Below, piece by piece: positions 293 to 58,296 of a stretch of DNA of 64,000 bases. Each line of letters begins with the position of its first letter. Position 1 is the first letter of the stretch. The notes beneath the pieces are model-generated. The model did no database searches. It worked only from the letters and a program-made list of their open reading frames with translations, and was not told the DNA's origin. The translations under genes and the position numbers were made by a program. The stretch is from Bacillota bacterium (GTDB lineage Bacteria; Bacillota_I; Bacilli_A; RF39; UBA660), in NCBI GenBank assembly GCA_015059195.1, contig SVAW01000001.1, positions 81,575-145,574 on the forward strand, read 5' to 3'.

Positions 293-350
293 TAATTGAC
301 AAACTGAACAAAGCGTAATAAAATTAAAATAGACAAGGGAGTAAGATAGT

Positions 351-416
351 ATGGTTAGAGTAAGTACAGAAAATAAATTAACAAAAATAACCACCTGGGG
401 GGGGGTATTTAAGTAA
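351..416 (+). CDS. Cassette mini-ORF L1, 21 aa MVRVSTENKLTKITTWGGVFK
   Basis: ATG lies 9 nt after AAGGGAG. The poly-G tract is read as TGG GGG GGG G. Stop TAA 414-416 lies in the 3' arm of the hairpin. Start, SD and N-terminus MVR(V/I) are conserved in all four copies. Confidence 0.45.
   Translation: MVRVSTENKLTKITTWGGVFK
397..405 (+). repeat. Homopolymeric G9 tract inside mini-ORF L1
   Basis: Direct count: ccacct + 9 G + tattt. I noticed no other G or C run of 8 or more outside the four cassettes. Confidence 0.9.
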
Positions 417-441
417 CCATACTATAATAAAAGAAATAAAT

Positions 442-498
442 AAACACGAAAGAATTTTAGAAAATCCATCGTTCTAAAATTTGTTTTCGTGTTTTTTT
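442..498 (+). terminator. Intrinsic terminator inside leader cassette 1
   Basis: aaacacgaaa-g-aattttagaa / loop aatccatcg / ttctaaaatt-tgt-tttcgtgttt, followed by a T-run. Two 10-bp helices are separated by a small internal loop. Confidence 0.8.
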
Positions 499-530
499 GT
501 ATGCCTTGTTAAGAATAGGAGGAAAGAAAG

Positions 531-1481
531 ATGAAGAAAAAAGGATTTACACTAATAGAATTACTAGCGGTAATAGTAGTACTAGCAATAATAGCACTAA
601 TAGCAACACCAATAGTAATGAATGTAATTAGTAACGCACAAAAAGGAGCAGCAGAAAGAAGTGCAGATAACTACGTAAAAGCAGTAGAAACATTAATCGC
701 AACAGAAAGATTAGATGGGGAACCAGTAGAAGATGGTACATACACAATAGATGAGAATGGAAACATTAAATCTGGTGATGTAGAATTAACAGTTGAGTTA
801 AATGGAACAAAACCAAATGGAGGAAGTATTGAAATTAAAGATGGACAAGTAGTAAAAAATGAAAGTTCAATCAAGGTAGGAGATTATACTGTTACTTTTG
901 AAGATGGAAAAGCTGAAGCGAAAGAATTAGCCAAACTACTAGATGTATGTCAATTAACAGATGGAGAGGAAAATGAAGTAGGAGCAGAGTACAATTGTAA
1001 CCTAGGAGATGGAGATAGAACATTCTATGTATTAGAAGCAGGAACAAGTAGTAAACCAGCAACATTAATACTAGAAGGAAACTATGATACGACGACACAA
1101 AGCTGGTGCGATCAAAATGGTGATTACCCTAATAATAGTTTATTATGCCAAGCAGATGGCTTAGCTGCTAAATTAGATGAAATAGCATTAGCATGGACAA
1201 AATTAGATAGAAGTCAAATAGGAATACCAAGTGCAGAACAAATCATGGTAGCAGATGGCCAAGCAGAAGATGCATATATAGATTATCCAATGTTAAATAA
1301 TGAATGGTTATGGAGTTGGGATAATGAAGCATGGGGAAATTCAGTGAACGGATATTGGACATCTACGCCTGTTGAGGGTGACTCTTATTCTATTTGGCTG
1401 GTATATGATGATGGTAGTGTTAATAATGATTTTGTGGATACTGACTTTGGTGTTCGACCAGTTCTAATGCTCTCAATTTAA
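531..1481 (+). CDS. Type IV prepilin-like protein with C-terminal DUF1566/FISUMP-like module (paralogue P1)
   Basis: N-terminus MKKKG|FTLIELLAVIVVLAIIALIA is a class III signal with Glu at +5. C-terminal motifs are NCNLGDGDRTFYVLEAGTSSKP, IGIPSAEQIM, GYWTST and FGVRPV. Strong RBS. Confidence 0.85.
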   Translation: MKKKGFTLIELLAVIVVLAIIALIATPIVMNVISNAQKGAAERSADNYVKAVETLIATERLDGEPVEDGTYTIDENGNIKSGDVELTVELNGTKPNGGSIEIKDGQVVKNESSIKVGDYTVTFEDGKAEAKELAKLLDVCQLTDGEENEVGAEYNCNLGDGDRTFYVLEAGTSSKPATLILEGNYDTTTQSWCDQNGDYPNNSLLCQADGLAAKLDEIALAWTKLDRSQIGIPSAEQIMVADGQAEDAYIDYPMLNNEWLWSWDNEAWGNSVNGYWTSTPVEGDSYSIWLVYDDGSVNNDFVDTDFGVRPVLMLSI

Positions 1482-2696: not shown

Positions 2697-3678
2697 TAGA
2701 GTTATAACCACCCATGAATTGGAAGAAGATACTTTTGAACAAAATATTCGCCCGGCTAGTTTAGATGAATATATTGGTCAGAGTGAGGTTAAAGATAACA
2801 TGTCAGTTTTTATAAAGGCTGCTAAAATGAGAGAAGAATCATTAGATCACGTGTTATTGTATGGACCACCAGGACTAGGCAAGACAACTTTGGCGTTTAT
2901 AATTGCTAATGAAATGGGAAGTAATATTAAAACATCTAGTGGACCTGCTATTGAGAAAAGCGGAGATTTAGCTGCGTTACTTTCAAGTTTGGAACCTGGA
3001 GATGTATTATTTATTGATGAAATTCATCGAATTCCTAGATATATTGAAGAAATTTTATATTCTGCTATGGAAGATTTTACACTTGATATCATTATTGGCA
3101 GTGATGCATCTAGCAGAAATATTAAAATTAATTTACCACCATTCACATTAGTTGGGGCAACAACTAGAGCAGGCGATTTAACAGGACCATTAAGAGATAG
3201 ATTTGGGATTGTGTCTAAGTTAAATTATTATACAGAATCAGAATTAACTGAAATTGTTAAACGAACCAGTAGAGTTTTAAATTGTGAAATAGACGATAAA
3301 GCTGCAGCGGAACTAGCAAGGCGTAGTAGAGGTACACCGCGTATTGCTAACAGATTATTTAAACGCGTGCGCGATTATGCGATGGTTATGGGAAGTGGGA
3401 TTATTGATTTAAAAATTACTAAAATTGCATTAGATAAACTTAAAGTTGATAATCTTGGCCTTGATCAAACAGATTACAATCTGTTAAGAGCTATTATTGA
3501 GCGATTTGATGGAGGACCTGTTGGAATAGAGGCTATTGCTTCCTCTATTGGCGAGGAGCAGACAACTATAGAAGATGTTTATGAACCATATTTGTTACAA
3601 CAAGGATTCTTAAAAAGAACTAATCGTGGTAGAGTAGTAACAGATAAAGCATATGAGCACTTAAATATCCAGAAATAA
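2686..3678 (+). CDS. ruvB: Holliday junction DNA helicase RuvB
   Basis: Walker [17 protein letters not shown] and the RuvB C-terminal domain. I prefer GTG 2686 (AGGAGG 7 nt upstream) over the TTG at 2668 in the ORF track. Confidence 0.9.
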
Positions 3679-3740
3679 TTATGTATTGACAAAATGAACA
3701 AGGCATAATAAAATTAAAATAGACAAGGGAGTAAGATAGT

Positions 3741-3803
3741 ATGGTTAGAGTAAGTACAAAATTTAATTCAACAAACCACCCGGGGGGGGGGGTATTTAAG
3801 TAA
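3741..3803 (+). CDS. Cassette mini-ORF L2, 20 aa MVRVSTKFNSTNHPGGGVFK
   Basis: Same SD and start as L1. G11 is read as CCG GGG GGG GGG G. It ends at the same TAA as L1. Confidence 0.45.
   Translation: MVRVSTKFNSTNHPGGGVFK
3782..3792 (+). repeat. Homopolymeric G11 tract inside mini-ORF L2
   Basis: Direct count: caccc + 11 G + tattt. Confidence 0.9.
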
Positions 3804-3828
3804 CCATACTATAATAAAAGAAATAAAT

Positions 3829-3885
3829 AAACACGAAAGAATTTTAGAAAATCCATCGTTCTAAAATTTGTTTTCGTGTTTTTTT
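3829..3885 (+). terminator. Intrinsic terminator inside leader cassette 2
   Basis: Same hairpin sequence as 442-498, followed by a T-run. Confidence 0.8.
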
Positions 3886-3986
3886 GTGTACCTTGTTAAA
3901 ACAAAAAAGTATATACTATTTGTATAATTTGAAGTTAAAAAGTACAAAATAAGATATACTGAATATGAAAATAGGAGGAGAGAAAG

Positions 3987-4943
3987 ATGAAGAAAAAAGG
4001 ATTTACATTAATAGAATTACTAGCGGTAATAGTAGTACTAGCAATAATAGCACTAATCGCAACACCAATAGTAATGAATGTAATTAGTAATGCTTCTAAG
4101 GGAGCAGCAGAAAGAAGTGCAGATAACTACGTAAAAGCAGTAGAAACATTAATCGCAACAAAAAGATTAGATGGAGAACCAGTAGAAGATGGGACATACA
4201 CAATAGGCACAGATGGGAACTTAAGTTTTGGTGATGTTGAGTTGAATGGAACAAAACCCAGTGGAGGAACAATTACAATTAAAGATGGACAAGTAGTTAA
4301 GGAAAATGCTTCAATAAAAGTAGGAGACTACACTGTAACATATGATGATGGAGCTGCAAAAGCCGATCAAATTATTGTATTGTGTAAAGCTATTGCTCCA
4401 ATACAACAAGAACTATATGATGCAACTACGAAAACAATGGTTCCAACAACCGTTGGAATACAAGCTACTTCATCAGCACCATACGCAGCGGGAGCAGTAT
4501 ATAGTTGTAATTTAGGTGATGGAGATAGAACATTTTATGTATTAAGTTCAACTAAAGACACAGTGTCGTTATTAATGGAGGAAAATATGGAAAGTCCAGC
4601 TACATGGTGTGCGACTGGCGATGATAATTCATGTAATGGAGATGGAGCAATCGCAAGTTTGAATTCGCAAACAAGTGGATGGTCAAAACTATTTAGTGTA
4701 AATGGTAAAGTTAGTTTACCGTCATACGATGATATGTATGGAGTTATAGGTGATGACTGGACTGCAATTAATTTGACTAATGTTGTTGCTAACAACGGAT
4801 ATTGGACATCTACGCTATGTGATTTTGAAATTACTGAGGCATGGATTGTAGAAAAAACTGATGTTACGACTACTGCTAGTGTTAACGCAGAATTCGGTAT
4901 CCGTCCAGTAATCACAATTTCCACAGAATATATATCACTTTAA
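3987..4943 (+). CDS. Type IV prepilin-like protein with divergent C-terminal DUF1566/FISUMP-like module (paralogue P2)
   Basis: The first ~110 codons are nearly identical to 51742-52650. C-terminal motifs are SCNLGDGDRTFYVL, VSLPSYDDMY, GYWTST and FGIRPV. Confidence 0.85.
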   Translation: MKKKGFTLIELLAVIVVLAIIALIATPIVMNVISNASKGAAERSADNYVKAVETLIATKRLDGEPVEDGTYTIGTDGNLSFGDVELNGTKPSGGTITIKDGQVVKENASIKVGDYTVTYDDGAAKADQIIVLCKAIAPIQQELYDATTKTMVPTTVGIQATSSAPYAAGAVYSCNLGDGDRTFYVLSSTKDTVSLLMEENMESPATWCATGDDNSCNGDGAIASLNSQTSGWSKLFSVNGKVSLPSYDDMYGVIGDDWTAINLTNVVANNGYWTSTLCDFEITEAWIVEKTDVTTTASVNAEFGIRPVITISTEYISL

Positions 4944-5911: not shown

Positions 5912-6430
5912 ATGAATGTAAAAAAAGTTGTGGTTGGATTATTAGAAACAAATTGTTATATATTAGAAAAAGGTAAGGAATGTTTGATAATTGATCCTGG
6001 GGATGAGCCACACAAAATAGAACAACAAATAAATAAAACAGTTAAAGCAATAATCGTTACTCATAATCATTTTGATCATGTTGGTGGAGTGTCATATTTT
6101 AAAGAAAAATATGGTGTAGAAGTATATGATTATGACAACTTAAAAGAAGGAATAAATAATATAAGTGAATTCATGTTTGAAGTATTATATATGCCGGGAC
6201 ATACAGTAGATTCTATAGTTATTTATTTTAAAGAAGAACAGATTATGTTTGTGGGAGATTTTATCTTTTATCACACAATCGGTCGGACAGACTTAGAGGG
6301 TGGTAATTTTGTTGATATGAAAAAAAGCATTAGCCGTTTAAAAGAATATAGAGATATTACTTTATATCCTGGACATGGATGTAAGACTACATTAGAGGAA
6401 GAAAGAATAAATAATAGTTATTTTAGATAA
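5912..6430 (+). CDS. MBL-fold metallo-hydrolase
   Basis: THNHFDHVGG metal-binding motif and later GH motifs. Confidence 0.8.
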   Translation: MNVKKVVVGLLETNCYILEKGKECLIIDPGDEPHKIEQQINKTVKAIIVTHNHFDHVGGVSYFKEKYGVEVYDYDNLKEGINNISEFMFEVLYMPGHTVDSIVIYFKEEQIMFVGDFIFYHTIGRTDLEGGNFVDMKKSISRLKEYRDITLYPGHGCKTTLEEERINNSYFR

Positions 6431-17524: not shown

Positions 17525-18001
17525 ATGAATATTATTAAAAAACATAAGTTTTTAGTATTGTTTATAAGCATTTTTATTGTTTTAATGATTATTGTTATTT
17601 TTGGAGTGATACAGTCAAACTCTTCTTCTGATAGTAACAGCAAGTACGGGAACAGATTAGTTGGAATAGAAAACATGCAAATTACTGATTCTAGGTTACA
17701 AACTGTTAAGGGAAACGTTTTAAGTGATAAAAGTGTGAATGATTTATCACATGATATAACAGGTAGAATAATTAAAATCTTTATTCAGGTCAAACCGGAA
17801 ACAGATGAAATAAAAATACAGTCATTAATGAATATAATTTTAGAAAATTTCACTGATGATGAGAAAAAATTTTATGATTTTCAGGTATTTATAACTAATG
17901 AGGTAGAAGAGACTGAGTTATATCCAATGATTGCATATAAACATCGTAATAATGTAGCTTTTACGATAACAAAGAAGGTAGGAGAAAAGAATGAAAAATA
18001 A
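17525..18001 (+). CDS. Membrane-anchored hypothetical protein
   Basis: N-terminal TM helix. It overlaps the start of the downstream GGDEF-like gene. Confidence 0.4.
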   Translation: MNIIKKHKFLVLFISIFIVLMIIVIFGVIQSNSSSDSNSKYGNRLVGIENMQITDSRLQTVKGNVLSDKSVNDLSHDITGRIIKIFIQVKPETDEIKIQSLMNIILENFTDDEKKFYDFQVFITNEVEETELYPMIAYKHRNNVAFTITKKVGEKNEK

Positions 18002-20054
18002 GAAATTATGGATTCCTATTATTGTAGGTTTGTTAATATTAGTAGTGGGAACTATTGTGTATTTTGTCGCTTTTAAAGAAGACAAAGATACTACGTTAAC
18101 ACTAATTGAAAAACAATGGATAGAAAAAAACAAAAGCAAATTAATTGATTTGTCTATTGTGAACAATATCCCAATGATAACTTATAATGGTGATGGAATA
18201 TTTTTTGATTTCTTAAGTGATTTAGAAGATGATACTAAGTTGGAATTTAATAAGGTAGCATATAAGCAAGGTGAAGAACCAAAAAGTGAGTATGCTTTGA
18301 AGATTGTTGAAAAGGCTTTAGAAAATCAAATACTTTTATATAGAGATAATTATGTATTAGTTACAAATGGTAATACTAAATATAATAAGTTAACAGAAAT
18401 TAAAGATTTAACAATTGGAGTTTTAAATTCGGATATTGAAAAGGTAAATACATATTTAAATGCTGAATCAAATCTTTTATTAAAATCATTTGATAATTAT
18501 ACGACAATGATTAGTGATTTAACAAATTCTGAAGCATCAAGTAAAACAGTAGATGCAATTGTATTACCTAGATTAATATATTTTAAAGATATAGTAGAAA
18601 ATTCAGATTTAAATATCGCTTATCATATTTCAGAAATCACACAAGATTATGTATTACAATTAGGTAATACCGATAAATTAAATGGTATTTTAGTAAAGTA
18701 TTATACTAAATGGGAGAAAGAGTCATATAATGATTCTTATCAGAATCAATTTTTAAATAATTATTTATCATTTTCAAATGTAGATGATATTACAAAAGTC
18801 GAATTTAAAAGCAAAAGATATTCTTATGGATTTGTTCAAAATAGTCCATATGATTTAATCTATGATGGTAGATACGTAGGAATAAATCATATCTTTATGG
18901 CAAAATTTTCTGACTTTGCGGATATAGAAATAAGCTATAAAAAATATGATGATATTGATTCACTAGTTCATGATTTTAATGAAAACAAATTGGATATTAT
19001 ATTTAACAATGCAACATATTCAACATTTAATATGGATGTTTTAAATACGGTTTCTGCATATGATGAAAAAATAGCTGTTATAACCCATCTAGGAAATAAT
19101 TTAGTCGTTAATTCGATTAATTCATTAAAAAATCATGAGGTTATGGCGGTAGCCTCAAGTAAGATTGCAGATATATTAATTAAAAAGGGAATAAACGTGA
19201 AGTCATATGAAAATGTAGATACTTTATTAAGAAATGCAAATAAGAACAGCGTCATTGTTTTAGATTCTGCAGCATATGATTATTATTCTAATAATAGTTT
19301 AAAAAATTATACTACTGCTTATATTTCTGATTTGGGAGAAGATTATACTTTTACAATTAGAAAAACAGCGGATAATGATCTTTTTGCTAATTTATTAAAT
19401 TTCTATTTATCTTTCAATAATGAACAAGAATTAACAAAAGAGGGATATTATGAAGTTATGGAATTAGCAAGACACCCATTCTCACTAAAGAGCTTAGTAT
19501 TATTCATTATTGGTGTTTTAAGCGCCGGAGTATTAACGTTCTTAGGTTTCTTATTGTTGAAGCCAAAGAAAAAGGTAAAGAAAGTTAATTTATCAAAGGA
19601 AGACAAGTTAAAGTATATTGATATGTTAACGTCATTGAAAAATCGTAATTACTTAAATGATAATATTGAAAAGTGGGACGCTAGTGAAGTGTATCCGCAA
19701 ACTATTGTTATCATGGATTTAAATAATGTCGCCTACATTAATGATAATTATGGTCATGCTGAAGGAGATAAAGTTATTGGAGAGGCTGCTAATATACTAA
19801 TTACTACTCAGATGCCAAATAGTGATATAATTCGTACTAATGGTAATGAATTCTTAATATATATGGTTGGATATGATGAAAAACAAGTTGTAAGTTATGT
19901 TCGCAAACTAAATAAAGAATTTAAATCATTATCACATGGATTTGGGGCTGCGATTGGTTATAGTATGATCACAGATGCTATTAAAACGATCGATGATGCA
20001 ATTAATGAAGCCACTGCTTCAATGCGCGAAATTAAAGAAGAAATTAACTATTAA
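17991..20054 (+). CDS. Membrane receptor with large extracytoplasmic domain and degenerate GGDEF domain
   Basis: TM, ~480-aa exterior region, TM, then a GGDEF-fold region (DLNNVAYINDNYGHAEGD). The signature reads NGNEF instead of GG[DE]EF. Confidence 0.7.
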   Translation: MKNKKLWIPIIVGLLILVVGTIVYFVAFKEDKDTTLTLIEKQWIEKNKSKLIDLSIVNNIPMITYNGDGIFFDFLSDLEDDTKLEFNKVAYKQGEEPKSEYALKIVEKALENQILLYRDNYVLVTNGNTKYNKLTEIKDLTIGVLNSDIEKVNTYLNAESNLLLKSFDNYTTMISDLTNSEASSKTVDAIVLPRLIYFKDIVENSDLNIAYHISEITQDYVLQLGNTDKLNGILVKYYTKWEKESYNDSYQNQFLNNYLSFSNVDDITKVEFKSKRYSYGFVQNSPYDLIYDGRYVGINHIFMAKFSDFADIEISYKKYDDIDSLVHDFNENKLDIIFNNATYSTFNMDVLNTVSAYDEKIAVITHLGNNLVVNSINSLKNHEVMAVASSKIADILIKKGINVKSYENVDTLLRNANKNSVIVLDSAAYDYYSNNSLKNYTTAYISDLGEDYTFTIRKTADNDLFANLLNFYLSFNNEQELTKEGYYEVMELARHPFSLKSLVLFIIGVLSAGVLTFLGFLLLKPKKKVKKVNLSKEDKLKYIDMLTSLKNRNYLNDNIEKWDASEVYPQTIVIMDLNNVAYINDNYGHAEGDKVIGEAANILITTQMPNSDIIRTNGNEFLIYMVGYDEKQVVSYVRKLNKEFKSLSHGFGAAIGYSMITDAIKTIDDAINEATASMREIKEEINY

Positions 20055-51116: not shown

Positions 51117-51515
51117 ATGAAAAAAGGCTTTACACTAGTAGAACTGCTTGCGGTTTTGTCAATTTTGGGGATATTAGCGGTGATTATAATTCCATCCGTA
51201 GCTACTACTATAAAAAATTCAAGAGTTGCTGCCTATGATAAACAGCTTTATGTTTTAGCTACGGCCACAGAAAAATGGGGAACTCAGCACCTAAACGAAC
51301 TTCCTGAGACAACATCTAACAACATAGTTGCAGTTGATTTTGAAACACTATATCAAGCTGGGGAAATTGCTTCTTATCCTGTACAAAACCCAATTACTGG
51401 GAACGACTTAGAAGGCTGTATCTTAATTTCGTATAACTTGCAATATAAACAATATGAGTACAAATATTCTGATAATTTAGCAGTATGCGATGATAACCAT
51501 TATAATAATGATTGA
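51117..51515 (+). CDS. Small type IV pilin/pseudopilin-like protein (tandem paralogue)
   Basis: MKKG|FTLVELLAVLSILGILAVIIIP ... GCILISYNLQYKQYEYKY. Confidence 0.8.
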   Translation: MKKGFTLVELLAVLSILGILAVIIIPSVATTIKNSRVAAYDKQLYVLATATEKWGTQHLNELPETTSNNIVAVDFETLYQAGEIASYPVQNPITGNDLEGCILISYNLQYKQYEYKYSDNLAVCDDNHYNND

Positions 51516-51566
51516 CAAAATGAACAAGGCATAATAAAATTAAAATAGACAAGGGAGTAAGATAGT

Positions 51567-51623
51567 ATGGTTAGAGTAAGTACAAAATTTAATTCAACAA
51601 ACCACCTGGGGGGGGGTATTTAA
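51567..51623 (+). CDS. Cassette mini-ORF L3, 18 aa MVRVSTKFNSTNHLGGGI
   Basis: Same SD and start. G9 is read as CTG GGG GGG GGT. It ends at the alternative TAA (ATT TAA), a different frame from L1 and L2. Confidence 0.45.
   Translation: MVRVSTKFNSTNHLGGGI
51608..51616 (+). repeat. Homopolymeric G9 tract inside mini-ORF L3
   Basis: Direct count: cacct + 9 G + tattt. The flanks are otherwise almost identical to copy 2, which has G11. Confidence 0.9.
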
Positions 51624-51652
51624 GTAACCATACTATAACTAGAAAAATAAAT

Positions 51653-51709
51653 AAACACGAAAGAATTTTAGAAAATCCATCGTTCTAAAATTTGTTTTCG
51701 TGTTTTTTT
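51653..51709 (+). terminator. Intrinsic terminator inside leader cassette 3
   Basis: Same hairpin as 442-498, followed by a T-run. Confidence 0.8.
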
Positions 51710-51741
51710 GTGTACCTTGTTAAGAATAGGAGGAGAATTTT

Positions 51742-52650
51742 ATGAAAAAGAAAGGATTTACATTAATTGAGTTACTAGCGGTAATAGTAGTACTAGCAAT
51801 AATAGCGTTAATCGCAACACCAATAGTAATGAATGTAATTAGTAATGCTTCTAAGGGAGCAGCAGAAAGAAGTGCAGATAATTATATTAAAGCAGTAGAA
51901 ACATTAATCGCAACAAAAAGATTAGATGGAGAACCAGTAGAAGATGGTGTATACACAATAAGGGCAGATGGGAACCTTAAATTTGGTAATGTTGTGTTAA
52001 ATGGAACAAAACCAAGTGGAGGAAGTATTGAAATTAAAGATGGACAAGTAGTTAAAAATGAAAGTTCAATCCAGGTGGGCGACTACGTAGTAAGTTATAA
52101 AGATGGAAAAGCAGAAGCAAAAGGATTAGCGAAACTAGACGATGTATGTCAATTAACAGATGGAGAAAAAAATGAAGTAGGAGCAGAGTACAATTGTAAC
52201 CTAGGAGATGGAGATAGAACATTCTATGTATTAGAAGCAGGAACAAGTAGTAAACCAGTAACATTAATATTAGAAGAAAACTATGATGTGGAAACTCTAG
52301 CATGGTGCGATCCTGATGTAGAACATTCTGAAGAAGAGGGTTGTAATGCAGATGGATTAACAGAAAAATTTAATTCGATTAGAGGAGCATGGTCGAAATT
52401 GGATAAAAAACAAATAGCTTTACCAACTTATGAGCAAATTTATGCGGTTAATGATGATGAATCATTCAAAAACGTTGGTTGGTTATATGATAACTTGGAG
52501 GAATCATCAGCACCATACGGTTATTGGCTTTCTGATTCATTGAATTGGGATGAAACATGGTTTGTTGACTATACAGGAATTATGAATTTTGATTCAACAT
52601 CGATAGCTAATAGGTATGGTGTTCGCCCAGTAGTAATGCTTCATATTTAG
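51742..52650 (+). CDS. Type IV prepilin-like protein with DUF1566/FISUMP-like C-terminal module (paralogue P4)
   Basis: The N-terminal ~190 codons form a mosaic of P1-like and P2-like sequence. C-terminal motifs are IALPTYEQIY, GYWLSD and YGVRPV. Confidence 0.85.
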   Translation: MKKKGFTLIELLAVIVVLAIIALIATPIVMNVISNASKGAAERSADNYIKAVETLIATKRLDGEPVEDGVYTIRADGNLKFGNVVLNGTKPSGGSIEIKDGQVVKNESSIQVGDYVVSYKDGKAEAKGLAKLDDVCQLTDGEKNEVGAEYNCNLGDGDRTFYVLEAGTSSKPVTLILEENYDVETLAWCDPDVEHSEEEGCNADGLTEKFNSIRGAWSKLDKKQIALPTYEQIYAVNDDESFKNVGWLYDNLEESSAPYGYWLSDSLNWDETWFVDYTGIMNFDSTSIANRYGVRPVVMLHI

Positions 52651-57487: not shown

Positions 57488-57587
57488 AATTTCACTTCCA
57501 TATTTATTATATCGTAAATTAGGATAAATTTGGTTGGCAAAATGAACAAAGCGTAATAAAATTAAAATAGACGAGGAGTAAGATAGT

Positions 57588-57716
57588 ATGGTTAGAATAA
57601 ATGTAAAAAAACAAATAACAAAAAAGCTCCTGGGGGGGGGGAGGTATTTAAGTAATCATACTATAACTAGAAAAATAAATAAACACGAAATAATTTTAGA
57701 AAATCCATCGTTCTAA
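57588..57716 (+). CDS. Cassette mini-ORF L4, 42 aa MVRINVKKQITKKLLGGGRYLSNHTITRKINKHEIILENPSF (read-through frame)
   Basis: G10-A-GG puts the ribosome in the third frame. The ORF runs through the hairpin 3' arm and the terminator 5' arm and loop. It stops at TAA 57714-57716 inside the terminator 3' arm. Confidence 0.4.
   Translation: MVRINVKKQITKKLLGGGRYLSNHTITRKINKHEIILENPSF
57632..57641 (+). repeat. Homopolymeric G10 tract (then AGG) inside mini-ORF L4
   Basis: Direct count: ctcct + 10 G + a + gg + tattt. Confidence 0.9.
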
Positions 57717-57736
57717 AGTTTGTTTTCGTGTTTTTT
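57681..57736 (+). terminator. Intrinsic terminator inside leader cassette 4
   Basis: Same scaffold as the other copies, with one wobble substitution and a T6 run. Confidence 0.75.
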
Positions 57737-57768
57737 GTATGCCTTGTTAAGAATAGGAGGAAAGAAAG

Positions 57769-58296
57769 ATGAAGAAAAAAGGATTTACACTAATTGAATT
57801 ACTAGCGGTAATAGTAGTACTAGCAATAATAGCATTAATAGCATTAATAGCATTAATAGCAACAGAAAGATTAGATGGGGAACCAGTAGAAGCTGGTACA
57901 AACAGCAAACCAGTAACGTTATTACTATCAGGACTCTATGATGGAACACCTATAAACTGGGTAGATGCTCACACTACCAAATTAGATGAAATGGCACGTG
58001 CTTGGACAAAATTAGATAGAAGTCATATAGGATTACCAAGCTTGGAACAACTTCTAGTAGCAGATGGTCAATCAGCAGATGATTATATTCTTGGTGATAC
58101 CATGTTAGGCAGACAATGGTTAACTCAATGTGATCATGAGGAGTGGACTAATACAATACACGCATATTGGACATCTACTTCTATCAATGATAATACTGCA
58201 GTTGATATTCCTGTTGGTGGTATGTTGGAGAGCTCTAGTATTACAGTCGTTGGTGATGTAGGTATTCGCCCAGTTATAACATTATCTATAAATTAG
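57769..58296 (+). CDS. Internally deleted pilin-like paralogue P5 (prepilin helix joined to C-terminal module; possibly a pseudogene)
   Basis: MKKKG|FTLIELLAVIVVLAIIALIALIALIA-TERLDGEPVE-AGTNSKPVTLLL... Two in-frame deletions relative to P1 and a 9-bp tandem expansion at 57822-57857. It retains IGLPSLEQLL, AYWTST and GIRPV. Confidence 0.6.
   Translation: MKKKGFTLIELLAVIVVLAIIALIALIALIATERLDGEPVEAGTNSKPVTLLLSGLYDGTPINWVDAHTTKLDEMARAWTKLDRSHIGLPSLEQLLVADGQSADDYILGDTMLGRQWLTQCDHEEWTNTIHAYWTSTSINDNTAVDIPVGGMLESSSITVVGDVGIRPVITLSIN
57822..57857 (+). repeat. 9-bp tandem repeat (agcattaat x3 plus one imperfect unit) in the P5 N-terminal helix
   Basis: agcaataat agcattaat agcattaat agcattaat. P1 has only two imperfect units at the homologous site. 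Confidence 0.85.

Follow-up and report, generated by a model that had tools for sequence, protein, structure and literature searches.

Poly-G tracts in candidate phase-variable leader attenuators ahead of type IV pilin genes in gut Bacilli

The closest described precedent for the element reported here is the pil1 locus of Streptococcus gallolyticus, in which 22 GCAGA repeats lie within a 38-amino-acid (aa) leader open reading frame (ORF) upstream of a stem-loop of -18.7 kcal/mol (Danne et al. 2014, PLoS Pathog 10:e1003860; PMC3894217). The short pil1 peptide stops 39 nucleotides (nt) ahead of the stem-loop, and out-of-frame changes give longer peptides ending in or after the hairpin. The pil3 locus has the same design, the pil1/pil3 hairpins being of -18.7 or -28.2 kcal/mol. 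At both loci short leaders go with low and long leaders with high expression, and isolates whose leader stop lies at least 28 nt ahead of the stem are mostly low expressers. ATG*, 3-STOP and terminator-deletion mutants show ribosome-mediated anti-termination, and the pil1 system functions in Lactococcus too (PMC3894217). Here we describe a 64,000-nt stretch of a Bacillota bacterium (GenBank assembly GCA_015059195.1, contig SVAW01000001.1, positions 81,575 to 145,574 of the forward strand; hereafter the window) with four copies of a leader cassette, in which a poly-G tract sits inside a small leader ORF ahead of an intrinsic terminator and a type IV pilin gene. We propose that each cassette probably acts as a phase-variable, ribosome-mediated transcription attenuator.

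The four near-identical cassettes of about 215 nt (296-510, 3686-3897, 51512-51721 and 57534-57748) are all on the plus strand. All four have the same order: promoter, mini-ORF with Shine-Dalgarno (SD) sequence, ATG and G-tract, long intrinsic terminator, ribosome-binding site (RBS) and type IV pilin gene. The promoter is kept in all four copies in the alignment, and GGGAG (337-341 in copy 1) lies 9 nt ahead of the mini-ORF ATG. Between ATG and tract are 38-43 nt of A-rich, variable sequence; the tract begins 41-46 nt past the A of the ATG and is thus a mononucleotide simple sequence repeat inside the leader ORF. It is followed by the conserved GUAUUUAAGUAAYCAUACUAU, a short A-rich linker, the long hairpin and a T-run. 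In copies 1, 3 and 4 the pilin RBS comes only about 25 nt after the T-run, with no promoter match in between; in copy 2, which has about 90 extra nt between the cassette and the pilin ATG at 3987, the distance is about 100 nt. The prepilin methylation motif (G/FTLIE; PF07963) scores above cut-off in all four downstream genes. The features of the four loci, all on the plus strand, are:

296-324, plus strand: copy 1 promoter, TTGACA, 17-nt spacer, TAAAAT (11 of 12 consensus matches)
351-416, plus strand: copy 1 leader mini-ORF, G9, short frame, 21 aa, MVRVSTENKLTKITTWGGVFK followed by a stop; the long frame would end at TAA 475-477
397-405, plus strand: copy 1 poly-G tract, G9 (G9 also in L105)
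444-498, plus strand: copy 1 intrinsic terminator, hairpin 444-492 and T7 run 492-498, with the long-frame stop in the 3' arm
517-522, plus strand: copy 1 pilin RBS, AGGAGG, 7 nt 3' of the 3' arm of helix P0 (see below)
531-1481, plus strand: pilin paralogue 1, 316 aa, N_methyl prepilin signal
3686-3897, plus strand: copy 2 cassette, with promoter 3686-3714, mini-ORF 3741-3803 (20 aa), terminator 3831-3885 and P0 3' arm 3891-3897
3782-3792, plus strand: copy 2 poly-G tract, G11, short frame
3987-4943, plus strand: pilin paralogue 2, 318 aa
51512-51721, plus strand: copy 3 cassette, with promoter 51512-51540, mini-ORF 51567-51623 (18 aa), terminator 51655-51709 and P0 3' arm 51715-51721
51608-51616, plus strand: copy 3 poly-G tract, G9, other short frame
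51742-52650, plus strand: pilin paralogue 3, 302 aa
57534-57748, plus strand: copy 4 cassette, with promoter TTGGCA 57534 to TAAAAT 57562, terminator 57683-57736 and P0 3' arm 57742-57748
57588-57716, plus strand: copy 4 mini-ORF, 42 aa, long frame, with its stop 57714-57716 inside the terminator 3' arm
57632-57644, plus strand: copy 4 tract, G10-A-GG (G10 is 57632-57641)
57769-58296, plus strand: pilin paralogue 4, a shortened protein of 175 aa whose N-terminal helix holds an IALIALIALIA repeat

The four tracts are the sole runs of at least seven G or seven C in the 64 kb; overlapping G7 matches number 15 compared to 0.93 expected, and none of 100 shuffles reaches 15. A preliminary description of this DNA had placed the poly-G inside the mini-ORF, distributed the four copies over three frames with one frame reading into the terminator, and translated the mini-ORFs by hand (21, 20, 18 and 42 aa). 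These statements hold and the translations are exact. The same is true of the position given for the end of the third frame in copy 1 (475-477, within the terminator 3' arm) and of the remark that no other G9-G11-like run occurs in the window.

To follow the leader ORF and its frames across relatives (labels L001 to L122 denote the compared loci or contigs), we used eight distinct copies of the window's cassette type, called type A: those of the window and of L001, L003, L004, L021 and L086, with 57-82% identity before the tract. From ATG to tract, the ATG frame has no stop in any of the eight copies, whereas the other two frames hold 19 and 12 stops summed over the copies (one to four per frame in each copy, never zero). 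An open ATG frame arises in shuffles with a probability of 0.24-0.40 per copy, and the product of 8.7e-5 over the eight copies makes its openness significant, although the figure is optimistic because the copies are related. The ATG frame of L116, read directly, is likewise open to the tract, and the mini-ORFs of L119-L122 have been called by gene finders as intact long-frame products. GAUAGUAUG is invariant across the aligned copies, with GGUAGUAUG in L119, and an SD-like AAGG(G)AG or AAAGGUAG is present in every copy. The leader peptide is not conserved except for MV(K/R) and the residues forced by an arm of helix P1 (see below), its pre-tract codons being variable, as expected where the act of translation and not the product matters.

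Copies differ in the frame in which the tract is left. After the copy 1 tract, two frames meet TAA at 410-412 and 414-416, and the third is open to TAA 475-477. Copies 1 and 2 are set to one short frame (stop 414-416 in copy 1), copy 3 to the other (equivalent to 410-412) and copy 4 to the long frame. The short-frame stops lie at -34 and -30 from the stem start in the window, which leaves 27-31 nt between their ends and the stem; for the relatives the positions are -32 and -21. Taking all copies, two frames stop 21-34 nt ahead of the stem and the third runs on to a stop at +11 to +31, within the hairpin. Relative to CAU ACU AUA of the P1 3' arm, every copy has the same frame as its long one, and this frame stays open despite a linker that varies in sequence and also in length (17 or 19 nt). 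Judging from these alignments, the leader ORF is maintained and the short/short/long layout is conserved in all homologues compared. The distance from the short-frame stops to the stem, put at about 25 nt in the preliminary description, is 27-31 nt.

The cassette thereby resembles pil1/pil3 in having a promoter, a leader ORF with RBS, ATG and a simple sequence repeat, a stem-loop terminator and pilus genes, with repeat number setting the frame. The short-frame stop is 27-31 nt ahead of the hairpin in the window compared to 28-39 nt in the pil loci, the long-frame stop is inside or after it, and hairpin energies are comparable (-16.5 to -22.9 kcal/mol for the window and homologues). Both systems belong to gut-associated Firmicutes and both target a surface filament. 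Unlike pil1/pil3, the cassette has no GCAGA repeats and no sequence homology to them: its repeat is a G homopolymer instead of 13-22 GCAGA units, it targets N_methyl type IV pilins instead of sortase-assembled pili, it is multi-copy, ahead of at least five paralogous genes, and its SD and AUG are enclosed by the covarying helices P0 and P1. The cassette has a single long frame out of three, whereas the pil1 peptide becomes longer with any out-of-frame change. Moreover, the pil1/pil3 mechanism is proven by mutants, whereas the window cassette is known from sequence alone. Because every structural element of pil1/pil3 is found here with no shared sequence, the cassette is, to all appearances, an independently evolved analogue and not a homologue of these attenuators. 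What is new is the homopolymer tract, the type IV pilins, the multi-copy cassette and the two helices sequestering the leader start region. Literature searches turned up no leader-ORF attenuator that uses a homopolymer or serves type IV pili, and their follow-up likewise found no other case. The preliminary description knew of no system with this logic; pil1 and pil3 use the same one (PMC3894217), and their working in Streptococcus and Lactococcus eases its worry over weak transcription-translation coupling in Firmicutes.

The copy 1 leader folds with -48.8 kcal/mol (z = -5.2 versus shuffles) into three helices, the terminator, P1 and P0. A terminator is predicted in every homologue as a 21-bp hairpin and T7 run, with energies of -17.7 kcal/mol for copy 1, -16.5 to -17.7 for the window copies and down to -22.9 for the homologues. 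Folding was used because the 9-nt hairpin loop makes a simple terminator scan miss it. P1 has 12 bp and encloses the mini-ORF start codon and the tract. The arms of P1 and P0 in the minimum free energy (MFE) structure of copy 1 are:

346-357, plus strand: P1 5' arm, AUAGUAUGGUUA, including the mini-ORF AUG
414-425, plus strand: P1 3' arm, UAACCAUACUAU, with TAA 410-412 and 414-416 at its 5' edge
332-338, plus strand: P0 5' arm, GACAAGG, overlapping the mini-ORF SD GGGAG 337-341
504-510, plus strand: P0 3' arm, CCUUGUU, just past the terminator T-run

Separate MFE folds of the homologues each give P0, P1 and the terminator, and RNAalifold gives P1, the terminator and part of P0. The P0 arms (5' / 3') are:

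Window copies 1-3: GACAAGG / CCUUGUU
Copy 4: GACGAGG / CCUUGUU, with one G.U pair
L003 and L086: GUAAAGG / CCUUUAC
L004: GUAAAGG / CCUUUAU
L021: GUAAAAG / CUUUUAU

As read from these sequences, P0 covaries, with three of seven pairs changed on both sides. P1 varies solely through G.U pairs on the sense strand (copy 4, L004, L021 and L119), which argues for pairing of the sense-strand RNA. Since the predicted P1 and terminator are the same from G5 to G14 when type A leaders are folded, tract length alone does not switch the RNA. Furthermore, neither helix can decide termination, because the P1 3' arm is made after the tract and the P0 3' arm after the terminator.

Several RNA-based or DNA-based readings were rejected along the way. 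A switch made of RNA only and set by tract length is ruled out by the folding from G5 to G14. A riboswitch does not fit junctions that are not conserved between species and a P1-enclosed region that is variable, and a metabolite-sensing attenuator of the trp/his type would need an alternative pairing to the terminator, of which none is predicted at any tract length, and pre-tract codons that are not variable. At gathering thresholds, Rfam 15 gave tRNA only across the whole window; at permissive E-values neither this leader type nor a second one found in relatives (type B, below) gave anything relevant, the best leader match being a microRNA hairpin at E=0.079. Against an invertible element speak the shortness of the 7-bp P0 arms and their tolerance of G.U pairs (copy 4, L004, L021 and L120), a promoter that lies outside them, and a hairpin that would terminate whichever way it pointed. 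A G-quadruplex, as at Neisseria pilE, is dismissed because a single run of 9-11 G cannot make an intramolecular three-tier quadruplex.

Exact-protein look-ups of the flanking genes led us to independent JGI, ENA and Logan assemblies of the same strain, which are consensus assemblies and not reads; JGI and ENA samples with this strain include 3300018493, 3300022660/61, 3300024268/69, 3300029705 and ERZ272483xx. The tract lengths found are:

Locus 1, G9: window and L105
Locus 2 (after ruvB), G11: window, L105, L106, L107, L112 and L113
Locus 2, G12: L108
Locus 2, G10 (long frame): L110
Locus 2, contig ends within the tract: L109 and L111
Locus 3, G9: window, L099 and L100
Locus 3, G10 (long frame; 40-aa ORF gene-called): L101 and L102
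Locus 3, G11: L103
Locus 3, G7-N10-G4, a scaffold gap inside the tract: L098

The lengths seen at loci 2 and 3, where the flanking proteins are identical to those of the window, place each locus in all three frames. Differences in tract length, which the preliminary description had proposed to look for between strains, are thus present between assemblies at locus 2 (G10/G11/G12) and locus 3 (G9/G10/G11), which is not proof at the level of reads. Copy 4 provides an internal control for homopolymer error, being invariant: its G10 gives an identical 42-aa product on 24 contigs, compared to 23 for the adjacent radical-SAM gene. In sample 3300024268, one contig resolves tract 4 yet has a gap in tract 3. 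The look-ups returned no record for pilin 1, nor for RuvB as a 336-aa ORF (the start of which is probably wrong, the protein of the collection having 330 aa).

Long-frame leaders are gene-called in these collections as hypothetical proteins of 39-44 aa. Of 24 collection blocks, 14 have the ruvAB segment between pilins 1 and 2 on a short contig (2-5 kb) with its breaks in the neighbouring cassettes or pilin genes; L106-L114, for example, are contigs of 2-3 kb with ruvA, NT5C and ruvB. For metagenome-assembled genomes (MAGs) of this clade, such 40-aa "genes" are a trap for annotation, and contigs broken at G-tracts are one for assembly.

We propose the following course of events. A strong sigma-A-type promoter would start a leader RNA with SD and AUG within its first 65 nt or so, and a ribosome loaded co-transcriptionally would translate 13-15 variable codons and then the G-tract. 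Slipped-strand mispairing at replication would alter the G count and thereby the frame in which the ribosome exits. Two frames would lead to a UAA within 12 nt (window) or 5-20 nt (relatives) and to release 27-31 nt ahead of the stem; the 21-bp hairpin and U-run would form, transcription would stop and the pilin would be OFF or at a basal level. In the third frame, the ribosome would continue for about 22 more codons to a stop inside the hairpin, covering the 5' arm while the polymerase makes the 3' arm and U-run, and with the terminator blocked the pilin would be ON. P1, which pairs the AUG region with sequence 3' of the tract, and P0, which pairs the SD region with sequence 3' of the terminator, would form only after these downstream segments are made. 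They would then close the leader start after the first co-transcriptional ribosome, shut later rounds of leader translation and give the read-through mRNA a structured 5' end. The slipped-strand leader attenuator put forward in the preliminary description, which would switch each pilin paralogue on its own, has thus gained a conserved ORF and frame layout, a polymorphic tract, the absence of a predicted RNA-only switch and a proven analogue, and is still a mechanism that we infer.

The cassette is not confined to the window. A fifth locus of the same organism, after ackA (L115:2945-3390), brings its cassette count in the genome above four; here the tract is G6-T-G5, the SD has changed from GGGAG to GGGAT, a 76-aa pilin remnant lies downstream and the locked product is on 22 contigs. 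Such decay agrees with a tract that is under selection only as long as it serves a pilin. In the same sample series, L117:2440-2653, after smc, has G11 (long frame) on a contig that ends in the cassette. An exact 21-mer of the P1 3' arm had no match among GTDB representative contigs, so that the source species is not among the GTDB representatives. A pilin-based scan gave 80 loci from uncultured gut Bacilli, "Tenericutes" and Erysipelotrichaceae MAGs and Clostridium sp. CAG:433. They hold 16 runs of at least seven G, all with G on the pilin sense strand and 14 of them directly upstream of pilin-type starts; the other pilin genes have no G5 or G6 run upstream. Type A cassettes were found in L003, L004, L021 and L001 (second site at 5914). 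A gapped-pattern metagenome scan gave 13 matches with a true cassette only in L086, and searches with long-frame peptides added the type A loci L116-L122.

Two further tract contexts occur in these relatives. Type B (L016, L017, L018, L045, L050 and L053) has a different conserved leader without an SD/ATG mini-ORF, in the order promoter, conserved UAAAAURGUUUG...GYRAAC hairpin, G9 or G10, UAUA, CCCC, U7 and RBS, so that the terminator has the tract as its 5' arm (G9-UAUA-CCCC-U7). The site in L016 (2347-2470) lies about 50-130 nt upstream of the pilin ATG at 2501, and L016 and L017, the same locus in two MAGs, have G9 and G10. Upon folding, each extra G adds one G.U pair to the stem, into the U-run, suggesting that tract length may have a graded, translation-independent effect on termination. 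The type B leader has no Rfam match, and literature searches, though directed at other questions, gave no precedent for it. Of all that is described here, these tract-in-terminator leaders have the best chance of being truly novel. In type C the tract is part of a promoter spacer: L046 has TTGACA-18-TACAAT with G10 at two sites (1836-1865 and about 3073-3102), and at L044:2403-2437 G16 makes a 23-nt spacer, with no promoter called. The contigs L010 and L042 both start (1-30) with G9 just before an extended -10 box, 50 nt ahead of the pilin ATG. As G-tracts lie upstream of pilins in three contexts, it appears from these loci that the clade uses them as pilin contingency elements.

Across the three contexts, more than 20 tracts were found, and on the pilin sense strand each of them is a run of G, never of C. 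This includes promoter spacers, where spacing should not depend on the strand; a replication-strand or mutational bias is a possible cause. At L065:2140-2330, 300 nt ahead of a pilin gene, a small ORF with SD and ATG contains a G10 tract; about 60 aa are encoded in one frame, the others stop within about 20 nt, and there is no obvious terminator behind it. The tract-in-leader idea may be wired here in yet another way.

The same anatomy can be read without a translating ribosome. The tract could be hypermutable and regulatory and yet tune elongation or termination directly, whether by slippage of the polymerase, by blockage or an R-loop where the non-template strand is rich in G, or by a changed RNA geometry close to the terminator; the mini-ORF would then be incidental. 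Transcription blockage by G-runs is orientation-dependent, all of the more than 20 tracts have G on the sense, non-template strand, and type B, with no SD or ATG and with extra Gs pairing G.U to the U-run, may work in this way. The type A tract, however, is 38-41 nt from a terminator whose predicted structure is the same from G5 to G14. This reading also leaves unexplained the stop-free ATG frame next to stop-bearing other frames, the conserved layout of two early stops and one long frame, and the joint decay of SD, ATG and tract in L115 and L035, and we consider it unlikely. We give even less credit to the idea that the cassette is a separate small gene, for a phase-variable small protein or a small RNA, with the pilins transcribed from other promoters. 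It would account for a complete promoter and terminator, for gene-called long-frame products of 39-44 aa and for -10-like boxes between terminator and pilin at some loci. Against it speak a peptide unconserved except for P1-arm-forced residues, a cassette directly ahead of a pilin-type gene or remnant wherever downstream sequence is present, and the mere 25 nt or so without promoter match that separate T-run and pilin RBS in copies 1, 3 and 4. P0, moreover, links the 5' end to post-terminator sequence and covaries, which means that the read-through RNA is under selection.

Finally, errors of sequencing or assembly could have produced the length differences, with the G-run carried along neutrally in a cassette that was duplicated recently. 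Runs of 9-12 G are prone to error, the four copies in the window are paralogues of near-identical sequence, and several contigs break in or near a cassette, which repeats alone can cause. Nonetheless, the G10 of copy 4 is the same on about 24 contigs of the same sample series, and G10 and G12 are not obtainable by mixing G9 and G11 paralogues. The tract also keeps its position in diverged species at 27% G+C in which other pilins have no G5 or G6 upstream, and it is interrupted exactly where the pilin is degenerate. We find this explanation highly improbable.

A number of observations sit uneasily with the attenuator that we favour. The openness of the long frame after the tract is in itself weakly significant (shuffle product 2e-3, from copies that share ancestry and are not independent), as the preliminary description had cautioned. 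The AUG lies within the P1 5' arm (P1 hairpin -20.4 kcal/mol), so leader translation would have to begin in the kinetic window that precedes synthesis of the 3' arm. The -10-like boxes past the terminator (copy 2, L021, L116 and L120-122) could allow basal expression independent of the terminator, and the length differences between assemblies could partly be homopolymer consensus errors. L035:2318-2500 is a diverged, type-A-like leader with ACG for ATG and GUGGGAGAGUGG instead of the tract, yet its terminator is intact and directly ahead of the pilin RBS; under the attenuator model it would be permanently low. Fixed long-frame copies precede a shortened pilin (copy 4) and a remnant (L115), and full-length pilins are mostly behind short-frame leaders, so that the model has most cells expressing mainly the short pilin, an odd outcome. 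Lastly, type B couples tract to terminator with no mini-ORF, which means that translation is not the sole route by which a tract can act.

Leader-peptide attenuation is classically known from trp, his and pyrBI, the ribosome physically covering the terminator at pyrBI. The cassette would likewise let ribosome position on a leader ORF decide terminator folding, in the covering mode of pyrBI; unlike trp, his and pyrBI, it lacks regulatory codons and a predicted antiterminator structure, and would respond to mutation instead of a metabolic signal. Homopolymers in promoter spacers are known from Bordetella fim, Neisseria porA/opc and Mycoplasma vlp. They too are slippage-prone tracts upstream of a surface-structure gene, which is thereby expressed stochastically, and the relatives L044, L046 and L010/L042 do exactly so. 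In contrast, the window tract is in a transcribed, apparently translated leader, 73 nt downstream of the -10 box, and therefore cannot act through -35/-10 spacing. We also rejected a TATAAT-like box at 423-428, 17 nt past the tract: its -35 would be GGGGGG, and the box is TATAAC in copies 3 and 4.

Inversion switches, such as C. difficile cwpV, which acts via an intrinsic terminator, share with the cassette a heritable, reversible change of the 5' leader that decides termination before a surface-structure gene. The change is slippage here and recombinase-mediated inversion there, which has no leader translation; the G.U pairs tolerated by the P0 arms mark them as RNA pairings and not as inverted repeats for a recombinase. 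A 2025 review of Rho-dependent termination lists stochastic termination control only through invertible DNA, with Rho-dependent switches at E. coli fim and C. difficile flgB. Poly-G or poly-C tracts within coding regions are found in Campylobacter contingency genes and Neisseria pilC, and at meningococcal siaD the frameshift is reported to provoke Rho-dependent termination (Lavitola 1999). Tract length shifts the frame in these cases as in the cassette, and siaD couples a premature translation stop to transcription termination. The shifted ORF is here a dedicated, unconserved leader, unlike in those genes, where it is the structural gene, and an intrinsic terminator divides this leader from the distinct gene that follows.

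The combination of slippage phase variation with leader-peptide attenuation has so far rested on one species and one repeat type, those of S. gallolyticus pil1/pil3. If the cassette evolved independently, the design is a recurrent solution and not a curiosity, a second origin and not a new principle. Cassettes are present in several uncultured gut Bacilli from animal and human samples. Under the attenuator model, tract length modulo 3 would give a sequence-only read-out of the ON/OFF state of each pilin locus from metagenomes, and pilus variation in uncultured commensals becomes testable with existing data. A broader picture, which we offer tentatively and regard as doubtful, is that G-tracts form a clade-wide modular pilin contingency system with three read-outs (promoter spacing, leader frame and terminator arm), with P0/P1 limiting the leader to the pioneer ribosome and with recombination adding combinatorial pilus variation. 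If true, each type A transcript would be read once, digitally, and the combinatorial variation would come, in a commensal, from mosaic recombination among at least five or six paralogues.

The pilin genes themselves vary. Paralogues have about 100 conserved N-terminal aa in common, followed by C-terminal domains that are mosaic, and alleles of the same locus diverge despite identical flanks: window 3987-4943 and L105:5923-6846 are 59% identical, and window 51742-52650 and L099:3126-4067 are 63% identical, the gene after the pilin (mutL) differing as well in L099. L120 and L121 have, at 1768, pilins of 335 and 356 aa behind an identical leader. This suggests recombination among pilin paralogues on top of phase variation, as far as can be told from these alleles. 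Pilin 4 is without the middle domain, and its cassette is the sole long-frame one in the window.

Extra segments of 70-150 nt between terminator and pilin RBS (window 3898-3986, L021:2415-2500, L116:790-890 and L120:1640-1767) hold TATAAT-like boxes, for example TTTGTATAAT and GGGTATAAT. The pilin loci of the window are scattered among housekeeping genes, and a search of ten of the larger window ORFs found no type IV pilus machinery gene. The pilin leaders have no match to c-di-GMP (cyclic diguanylate) riboswitches; window 17991-20054 encodes a 687-aa GGDEF-domain protein (diguanylate cyclase), which means that the organism has c-di-GMP signalling.

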